A stretch of DNA of 64,000 bases from Candidatus Latescibacterota bacterium (GTDB taxonomy: Bacteria > Krumholzibacteriota > Krumholzibacteriia > WVZY01): positions 96,001 to 160,000 of the forward strand of contig CAWBQK010000006.1 in the NCBI GenBank assembly GCA_963791045.1. The letters run 5' to 3'. A program made the translations under genes and the position numbers. Shown here piece by piece: positions 14,245 through 15,691 of the stretch. Each line of letters begins with the position of its first letter. Position 1 is the first letter of the stretch. The notes under the pieces were generated by a model. The model was given only the letters and a program-made list of their open reading frames with translations, had not been told where the DNA came from and did not search any database.

Positions 14245-14580
14245 TTAGTTAATGCCGATATAGAGGGTGAGGACGATACCAAAGACCATAAAGATGGATC
14301 CACTGATGATCAAGAAAACCCCAATGCCTTTAGTGGTCTGGATTAGGTTTGTGGTCGCTGCCATTAAATTTGAGGCATTGTCGACCAGGCCCGATAGATC
14401 ATCCGCAATTCCTTTTTGAACCATTTGGACGATTGATTTACTGATCGCGCTGGTATCCCTGCCGATCGAGCGGATGATCAGGATGGCAACACCGATTGCA
14501 AAGGTGATCAAACCGATCAGGAATAAACCTGATGCCATAGCAGATAAAACGCGAGCAATTTCAAAAACAGTCATAGTCAT
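14245..14580 (-). CDS. Small two-TM hypothetical membrane protein, first gene of the TPR/peptidase operon
   Basis: 111 aa ORF with AAGGAG RBS and two hydrophobic helices. Confidence 0.75.
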   Translation of the reverse strand: MTMTVFEIARVLSAMASGLFLIGLITFAIGVAILIIRSIGRDTSAISKSIVQMVQKGIADDLSGLVDNASNLMAATTNLIQTTKGIGVFLIISGSIFMVFGIVLTLYIGIN

Positions 14581-14615
14581 TGTAAAAACTCCTTTTTAGT
14601 GATTTCTTCTAATAG

Positions 14616-14631
14616 TGCAAGTTGCATGCCG
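14616..14631 (-). promoter_or_regulatory. Sigma-54 (RpoN) -24/-12 promoter
   Basis: Minus strand CGGCATGCAACTTGCA is GG-N10-GC with TTGC at -12, about 35 nt before ATG 14580. Confidence 0.6.
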
Positions 14632-14762
14632 ATTGCTAGAAAAAGTTGAATGGTCAATTTCCATCCATAAAAATTAAAAGTTCTTGTGATTATTATGCAA
14701 GAACTACGCCAAATTTACTGAGAAATGTATCGCATCAATTTCCTCAAGGATTTTGCCAGCTA

Positions 14763-14791
14763 TTGACGAATTTTAGTCAGCAAGTTACAAT
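14763..14791 (+). promoter_or_regulatory. Sigma-70-type promoter of rplY
   Basis: TTGACG-17 nt-TACAAT. Confidence 0.75.
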
Positions 14792-14797
14792 CTCCCC

Positions 14798-14945
14798 GGC
14801 TAAAAATATCGTCACCGACATGTGGCGGTCTTTTTTTGTGGACCGCGTTTGGAAGATGGTATGCTATAGCTGGTAATCATTACTCTATAGAAGCGAAGGT
14901 AACTGCCCATTGTGGGGGGTGAGAGGCGCTTCGAGGATGGAAGAA
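14798..14945 (+). promoter_or_regulatory. Structured rplY 5' leader with a 5S rRNA loop-E-like hairpin (candidate L25 autoregulatory site)
   Basis: Stem GAAGC/GCTTC enclosing GAAGGTA/GAGAGGC, then AC/GT, at 14890-14932, directly before the GAGG RBS; further hairpins upstream. Confidence 0.55.
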
Positions 14946-15644
14946 ATGGAAAAGTATATATTAGATGCAGAGAAACGAGAAGTAATCGGCAAAAAAGTTA
15001 AAGCCCTTCGCCGTGAAGGTAAACTCCCCGCAGTCATTTACGGCCAGGAGATCGAAACCATGGCAATCACTTTAGAGACCAGGCAGGTTCAACAGGTCTT
15101 AAAAGTTGTTGGTGCCAACACATTGATCAGCGTTAAACTTGGCAAGGAAGAATATCTGGCTCTGGTTCGAGACATTCAGCGCGAAGTGATCATGCGTGAT
15201 CTGCTTCATATGGATTTTCAGGCTGTATCACTCGAAGAAACTATCACCACCACAGTGCCAGTGGTTATGGTTGGTGTGGCACCGGTGATAGAAGAATTTG
15301 AAGCTTTGCTGATCTTAAGTATGGATGAACTGCAGATCGAAGCAAAAGCGAAAGACCTGCCGGATACAATATCTGTGGATGTCTCTGGAATGATGGAAGT
15401 AGGAGACAACATCCAGGTAAAAGATCTTGTAATCTCAGGTGATGTAACAGTCCTCGATGATCCGGATGAAGTAGTGGTTGTTGCAACCGTTCCAACCTTG
15501 ATGGAAGAGATCGTTGACGAGGTAGAAGAAGGTGCAGAACTCTTTGAGGAACTCACCGACGCCGAGTTGATGGAAGGTGAAGAAGGCGAAGAAGTTGGAG
15601 CAGAATGCAGCAGCAGCAGAAGAAGAAGAGTAAACTGTAAGTAG
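14946..15644 (+). CDS. rplY: 50S ribosomal protein L25/CTC (long form with acidic tail); the last few codons are probably shifted by an indel (intended stop about 15633)
   Basis: GKKVKALRREGKLPAVIYG, RDIQREV, HMDF, LPDTISVDVSGM, DPDEVVV. Confidence 0.95.
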   Translation: MEKYILDAEKREVIGKKVKALRREGKLPAVIYGQEIETMAITLETRQVQQVLKVVGANTLISVKLGKEEYLALVRDIQREVIMRDLLHMDFQAVSLEETITTTVPVVMVGVAPVIEEFEALLILSMDELQIEAKAKDLPDTISVDVSGMMEVGDNIQVKDLVISGDVTVLDDPDEVVVVATVPTLMEEIVDEVEEGAELFEELTDAELMEGEEGEEVGAECSSSRRRRVNCK

Positions 15645-15652
15645 TAAAGAAC

Positions 15653-15691
15653 AACCATCCCGATAGGATATATCCTGTCGGGATGGTTTTT
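15653..15691 (+). terminator. Intrinsic terminator of rplY
   Basis: AACCATCCCGATAGGA/TCCTGTCGGGATGGTT stem plus T-run. Confidence 0.85.

Follow-up and report, generated by a model that had tools for sequence, protein, structure and literature searches.

A partial copy of 5S rRNA loop E in a conserved hairpin of the rplY leader of an Anaerolineales-type lineage: a candidate L25 operator

Introduction

Feedback through a leader that copies the rRNA site of a ribosomal protein is a classic arrangement, with leaders that mimic the rRNA site known for S8 (spc), L1, L20, S15 and L4 (S10); E. coli, the only L25 case that has been studied, shows no visible mimicry. In 5S rRNA, the protein L25 recognizes loop E by its widened minor groove together with the adjacent major groove of helix IV, and the loop E bases that it contacts are reportedly those described by Lu and Steitz in 2000 and by Stoldt et al. 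in 1999. Loop E consists of seven non-Watson-Crick pairs with a centre of symmetry at G75.A101, and a contact of L25 lies near U80 (PMC1976436).

In E. coli, L25 represses the translation of its own gene, rplY (Aseev, Bylinkina and Boni 2015, PMC4408793). That paper describes an rplY hairpin, HII, that "does not resemble" loop E and a weak Shine-Dalgarno (SD) sequence, GAGA(G); it also reports that no distinct band shift of the rplY mRNA was seen with purified E. coli L25 and that a strong SD abolished the control by L25. According to a 2024 review (PMC10931766), the features of E. coli-type rplY control are limited to species with a short, one-domain bL25, and the "L25 r-leader in Enterobacteria" is the only L25 leader given in the sections of PMC7247131 that were covered.

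This study follows up the leader of an rplY gene within a 64,000-nt stretch of DNA (the window), for which an earlier note had proposed feedback by L25 through a mimic of loop E. The window leader and the E. coli leader have in common a monocistronic rplY 5' UTR, an irregular hairpin before the ribosome binding site (RBS) and L25 as the proposed translational repressor. By its published description, the E. coli leader differs in both sequence and structure, with no likeness to loop E, a weak SD and a short L25, whereas the window leader serves a two-domain L25 and combines a classic GAGGA SD with a loop that copies loop E; because of this different build, the window element is treated as a family separate from the E. 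coli rplY leader. The S8/spc, L1, L20, S15 and L4/S10 leaders share its logic of an rRNA-site copy near the translation start, and differ from it in the protein, in the rRNA (here 5S) and in the fold.

The comparison with Rfam that the earlier note had suggested gave no family matching the leader: a cmscan of positions 14300-15300 against all 4227 families of Rfam 15, with E up to 10, returned two chance matches in the coding region. The literature searches, which took in text sections of PMC7247131, found an L25 leader only for Enterobacteria-like bacteria and no report of a mimic for L25. The earlier note was not aware of a leader of this type in Chloroflexota, and none was found in the literature searched; within that scope, no such rplY leader element is in print for the Anaerolineales-type group.

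Host lineage of the contig

The assembly that holds the window (G000) contains a second L25 gene, located on contig C7 in a prs-rplY-pth setting. The L25 proteins of the listed relatives of G000 are 50-63% identical to the C7 copy and about 30% identical to the window's, and close homologues of the window's L25 (68-89%) are frequent in Anaerolineales/Chloroflexota MAGs. The window's MnmA shows 79-80% identity to five genomes that have a single L25 gene and 39-44% to the listed relatives of G000, and the Prs of C7 displays the opposite affinity. The contig carrying the window (C6) has a GC content of 52.7%, compared with 53.6-58.6% for the other contigs; its genes are 79-88% identical to one Anaerolineales-type lineage, and C7 together with the 5S rRNA on contig C1, which is unlike the 5S of the window's lineage, represents another. 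Duplicated open reading frames (ORFs) make up 9.7% on C6 and 2-13% on other contigs with at least 40 ORFs, a measure that is not decisive alone. Judging from these affinities, G000 is a mixed bin and C6 derives from a different Anaerolineales-type lineage than most of the bin; two L25 genes occur in one assembly because the bin is mixed. All comparisons were therefore re-centred on G044, a genome of the window's lineage, and the 5S rRNA found in the assembly itself is, for the same reason, not the one to compare with the leader. The possibility that the window's rplY is a paralogue of the C7 gene was considered and rejected, given that five window-type genomes have a single L25.

Organization of the rplY locus

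The features of the locus are collected in Table 1. Both domains of the rplY product are assigned by Pfam (Ribosomal_L25p, 1.1e-20; Ribosomal_TL5_C, 2.2e-17), and many bL25 chains in solved ribosomes match it. The gene is the sole L25 gene of the window's lineage, with one per genome in all five genomes considered. Its conserved start is the ATG at 14946, an alternative ATG at 14937 being missing from relatives, and its upstream neighbour is a divergent gene on the opposite strand. The promoter and leader of about 150 nt that the earlier note had read here were recovered by the consensus scan, with a predicted leader of nearly the same length. The promoter block is also present in close relatives, and 38 of the 88 motif-bearing loci have a TTGACR-N16-18-TAnAAT sequence no more than 200 nt upstream. 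Since a predicted intrinsic terminator follows the gene, rplY appears to be monocistronic, standing alone in the window's lineage with its own predicted promoter and terminator.

Table 1. Features of the rplY locus in the window, in order of position.
Feature	Position	Strand	Basis or remark
Sigma-70-like promoter: TTGACG (14763-14768), 17-nt spacer, TACAAT (14786-14791)	14763..14791	+	Consensus scan, 10/12
Predicted rplY 5' leader, about 148 nt	14798..14945	+	Promoter position and conserved start codon
Hairpin ATCGTCAC/GTGGCGGT (14808-14829), then C and U7 (14831-14837)	14808..14837	+	Terminator scan
Basal stem, 5' strand, GAAGCG	14890..14895	+	Pairs with 14927-14932
Internal loop, 5' strand, AAGGUA, equivalent to 5S A73-A78	14896..14901	+	Column counts
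Upper stem-loop, in place of 5S helix IV	14902..14920	+	Minimum free energy (MFE) fold
Internal loop, 3' strand, GAGAGG, equivalent to 5S G98-U103	14921..14926	+	Column counts
Basal stem, 3' strand, CGCUUC	14927..14932	+	Pairs with 14890-14895
Shine-Dalgarno GAGGA	14933..14937	+	Begins 1 nt past hairpin; conserved columns
rplY, two-domain bL25, 232 aa	14946..15644	+	Pfam
Intrinsic terminator 3' of rplY, 16-bp stem then T-run	15653..15688	+	Terminator scan

Structure and conservation of the hairpin

The hairpin at 14890-14932, for which the earlier note had given both sequence and coordinates exactly, is 43 nt long and reads GAAGCG-AAGGUA-ACUGCCCAUUGUGGGGGGU-GAGAGG-CGCUUC. Its basal stem has 6 bp and is followed by a symmetric 6x6 internal loop (AAGGUA/GAGAGG); the upper stem is irregular and is composed of A-U, C-G and U-G pairs, a G.G mismatch and a CCCA/UGGG helix closed by the loop UUG. 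Folded alone, the segment adopts this hairpin as its MFE structure (-18.1 kcal/mol, z -3.27, with 1 of 200 shuffles equally good), and the same hairpin is present in the MFE fold of the 163-nt leader (z -2.76).

Among close relatives, the hairpin was found in all 30 orthologue loci that include the upstream region, and each of the 20 distinct sequences among them folds alone to the same shape. A plain MAFFT alignment of 19 whole leaders, analysed with RNAalifold, gave the hairpin as well. Covariation was assessed on 89 copies, 86 of them distinct, fitted to a covariance model. Across the 86 distinct copies, 93.0% of the cells are paired and 9 of the 12 pairs are changed on both sides, with a covariation score that was reached by none of 500 shuffles; sliding the partners by 1-3 columns left 35-55% paired. 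In the basal stem, 99% of the cells are paired and 4 of the 6 pairs show changes in both partners. Copies differ in the sequence and length of the distal upper stem (matches of 46 to 73 nt), with compensatory changes, and the first two upper-stem pairs are nearly fixed (A-U in 80 and C-G in 78 of 86 copies).

In the same 86 copies, the counts for the 5' loop columns are A 86, A 54 / G 31 / C 1, G 86, G 86, U 85 and A 85, and those for the 3' loop columns are G 82, A 83, G 86, A 86, G 86 and G 86, next to an invariant closing G-C pair. Ten of the twelve loop positions are put at 85 or more of the 86 copies, the first two 3' positions being listed at G 82 and A 83. A loop that stays fixed while the stems around it change is what would be expected of a specific binding site. 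The earlier note had pointed in advance to relatives as the place where its proposal could fail, and in these relatives the loop is kept and both stems covary.

The SD is conserved as well, being GAGGA or AAGGA in nearly all of the 86 distinct copies (columns 83-87 of alignment A5: G 68 / A 13, A 81, G 85, G 84, A 82), and the rplY start codon in the window lies 8 nt after GAGGA. In the RNAalifold structure of the 19 close leaders, the basal stem is extended by UCU paired with the GGA of the SD, where the bases are invariant; the bases upstream of the basal stem show no conservation in distant copies. Such an extension of the basal stem into the SD is a possibility.

Distribution of the motif

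A covariance model (R1) was built from the 20 distinct close copies and used to scan whole genomes, where, among 101 relatives of G044, 80 gave a match and 78 of these 80 gave a single one. A total of 81 of the 83 matches, including all of at least 27 bits, are placed 4-14 nt upstream of an L25 start codon; the remaining two are second matches that are weak (about 21 bits) and are not followed by an L25 gene. Of the 101 relatives, 96 yielded an L25 gene, and with the filters off the motif was detected in 5 of the 16 L25 loci that had no match in the genome scan, bringing the total to 85 of the 96 relatives with an L25 gene. The variant leaders of L194 and L208, described below, are two of these five. 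The 11 L25 loci that lacked the motif with filters off each encode a protein with at most 38% identity to the window's L25, and the motif persists where L25 identity has fallen to 33%. Sampling the phylum evenly gave a true match in 13 genomes out of 151, eight of which were new, strong and all located 4-14 nt before L25, and three weak matches were false. The element is confined to part of the phylum. Overall, the covariance models placed the hairpin in 89 genomes, nearly all with one copy, before rplY.

Outside this group, R1 gave no match before 40 L25 loci (30 from the other lineage and 10 from distant phyla), the best score being 11.7 bits, and a loose regular expression for a loop-E-like hairpin found one chance match there. 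The other lineage of the bin has its rplY in the prs-rplY-pth arrangement, and none of 30 such loci carries the motif. No second copy of either leader element was found elsewhere in the bin. The leader model R2 returned no true match in 151 Bacteroidota genomes, where two weak matches had no L25 gene behind them, nor in 4 genomes from other phyla.

A loose descriptor of the motif gave 4 matches in 7.3 Mb as against 0, 1, 4, 0 and 0 in five shuffles. With up to 4 matches in a shuffle, a single match anywhere in the 3.66-Mb bin is unremarkable; the chance expectation of a descriptor match within the 60 nt before rplY is about 3 in 100,000.

Resemblance to 5S rRNA loop E

The E. coli loop E strands used as a reference in the earlier note, GAUGGUA and GAGAGUA, agree with the 1DFU sequences as given in Table 1 of PMC1920249. 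In 66 genomes of the group, the 5S rRNA reads (C/U)NGAUGGUACU ... GGGAGAGU(A/U)(G/A)G with three exceptions, so that the loop E strands are AUGGUA and GAGAGU in 63 of the 66, set against ARGGUA and GAGAGG in the leader. The earlier note had claimed that the four non-canonical pairs G75.A101, G76.G100, U77.A99 and A78.G98 are reproduced in the leader; at the level of sequence this is true, and the match is wider, with 10 of 12 loop bases identical in register. For a target named beforehand and equal base frequencies, a match of 10 in 12 would arise by chance about 4 times in 100,000.

The loop bases shared by the leader and 5S rRNA are A73, G75, G76, U77, A78, G98, A99, G100, A101 and G102; outside the loop, G72 and the C71-G105 pair are shared as well, and in both RNAs an irregular helix follows on the helix IV side. 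The leader differs in having A or G for U74, G for U103 and, at position 104, a C that is paired with G72, so that its loop has 6x6 positions where that of 5S has 7x7, and loop E's second half-motif is missing. Further differences lie directly above the loop, where the first pairs are A-U and C-G in the leader and C-G and U-G in 5S rRNA. The bases that would form the half-motif on the helix IV side (A78.G98, U77.A99 and G76.G100) and the central G75.A101 are kept in 82-86 of the 86 copies, and the second half-motif is absent, with G-C, A.G and R.G in the leader in place of G72.A/U104, A73.U103 and U74.G102. As far as its bases tell, the leader is a partial copy of loop E, comprising the helix-IV half and the central pair and not the far half. 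From the leader it can be read which half of loop E has been retained, and hence which half probably matters for L25.

Model R2 gave no match to the 5S rRNA loci with filters off and E up to 10, and the whole-genome scans with leader models never returned a 5S rRNA; the likeness is therefore confined to the loop. In three genomes, G119 (locus L211), G133 (L213) and G139 (L212), the G76.G100 pair of the 5S rRNA is changed to C.A, U.A and A.A, and the leader retains G.G at the equivalent of 76.100. Because the leader keeps this pair despite the changed 5S, it does not track the 5S rRNA base for base. The same three leaders are unusual beside the upper stem, with UUGAGG in two of them and A-U replaced by U-A in one, and of the genomes that combine the usual 5S core with a recorded leader, three (G108, G110 and G136) have a leader changed in the loop or in the first helix pair. 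The genomes G119, G133 and G139 are probably kin, so the association between leader and 5S is a hint that may reflect few independent events. Within this subclade, L25 may be co-evolving with both of its RNA partners, 5S rRNA and the leader.

Upstream part of the leader

The earlier note had listed further stems upstream of the hairpin (ATATCGTC/GATGGTAT, GCGGTC/GACCGC and CTATAG/CTATAG). These did not hold up in the RNAalifold consensus of the 19 close leaders, and the first two occur in the single-sequence fold of the leader only. The consensus contains a hairpin formed by ATCGTCAC and GTGGCGGT, with 8 pairs, a variable loop and a change from U-G to U-A in 4 leaders; with the U7 run behind it, this hairpin resembles an intrinsic terminator, perhaps a two-way one, within the leader, and it might act as an attenuator, a pause site or a 5' stabiliser. 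Hairpin and U7 occur together in just 20 of the 88 motif-bearing loci and are therefore placed outside the core element. The hairpin lies about 10 nt past the predicted transcription start, is preceded by an A-rich run and is almost invariant; it is also present in loci L033-L037, L039-L041 and others.

Proposed regulatory mechanism

The leader holds a conserved structured RNA in the 5' UTR of a ribosomal protein gene, adjoining the RBS, which is a general feature of autoregulatory r-protein leaders. The comparative evidence favours the feedback of L25 on its own translation that the earlier note had proposed, with L25 as ligand and repression as outcome being what we infer from it, and the hairpin is probably a translational operator at which free L25 would repress its own gene, rplY. 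The loop and the first upper-stem pairs would imitate the loop E/helix IV site of bL25, so that L25 in excess over free 5S rRNA would bind the leader hairpin; the bound 25-kDa, two-domain protein would then exclude or trap the 30S subunit, and rplY translation would fall. Since the hairpin ends 1 nt before the SD, a bound L25 would be positioned to keep the 30S subunit off or to trap it. Several points count against an L25 operator: the leader model does not match 5S rRNA, the copy lacks the far half of loop E, the first pairs above the loop differ from those of 5S, and where 5S has changed at G76.G100 the leader has not followed. Moreover, the SD here is strong, and in the E. coli study a strong SD abolished control and no distinct band shift of the mRNA was seen with L25 (PMC4408793).

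Some of these points would be accounted for if the hairpin were bound by a factor other than L25, such as another protein that recognizes purine-rich non-Watson-Crick loops, or by no ligand at all, and acted as a standby site or in mRNA stability, which we consider unlikely. The loop E likeness would then reflect a common RNA module, in which a sheared A.G pair is combined with a reverse-Hoogsteen U.A pair and which is also found in sarcin-ricin-type loops. Such an explanation is consistent with the missing 5S cross-match by the model, with a likeness to half of loop E only, with two pairs above the loop that are fixed yet unlike 5S, and with leaders that do not follow the G76.G100 change in three genomes. 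A general module would be expected at other genes too, whereas the hairpin is nearly always a single copy before rplY; 10 of its 12 loop bases match the sole RNA site known for the product of the downstream gene, for which autoregulation has a precedent in E. coli.

Alternatively, L25 may bind the hairpin and exert its control mainly through transcription or mRNA decay, for example in concert with the terminator-like hairpin and U7, an arrangement that we regard as improbable. The conserved hairpin and U7 run in the window and its close relatives would suit such a mode of control, as would the attenuation by which some r-protein leaders of Bacillus act (L10; PMC10931766). That hairpin is present in 20 of 88 motif-bearing loci only and, lying 5' of the L25 site, would be made before L25 could bind, and it is the contact between the loop E-like hairpin and the SD that stays conserved everywhere. 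A resemblance to loop E without meaning in a hairpin that is itself real is highly improbable, for although the loose descriptor matched the bin 4 times and its shuffles 0-4 times, the loop bases are fixed over 86 distinct copies while L25 diverged to 33% identity, and 10 of 12 bases match a target named before looking.

If the hairpin is an L25 operator, it runs counter to the view of rplY autoregulation as limited to the short L25 of E. coli-like bacteria, and it would be the first L25-mRNA pair with a mimicry that is legible in the sequence, offering a route to the loop E features that L25 needs. A leader for a two-domain L25 with 10 of 12 loop E bases would provide a clean test system. We tentatively entertain the broader possibility that L25 control by a loop E copy is recurrent, having arisen separately in several phyla and serving the common two-domain L25. 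The leader family, present in 89 genomes and backed by strong covariation, is an addition to a phylum for which few cis-regulatory RNAs have been described, and an Rfam entry for it could improve the annotation of such genomes.

Variant leaders

Departures from the common form of the leader were seen at several loci. At five loci without the motif (L195, L196, L199, L201 and L207), the sequence before rplY is G+C-rich and coding-like, with little or no leader, which suggests a different gene arrangement at rplY in several of the motif-less relatives. At L208 (G136), the 5' loop strand is AUUGGUA, one base longer than usual and with the U of 5S position 74 present, and this leader loop is nearer to 5S rRNA than the consensus leader. 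At L194 (G071), the upper stem contains an insertion with a long perfect inverted repeat, of which the model catches the 3' half at 20.8 bits; the insertion could be a small mobile insert.
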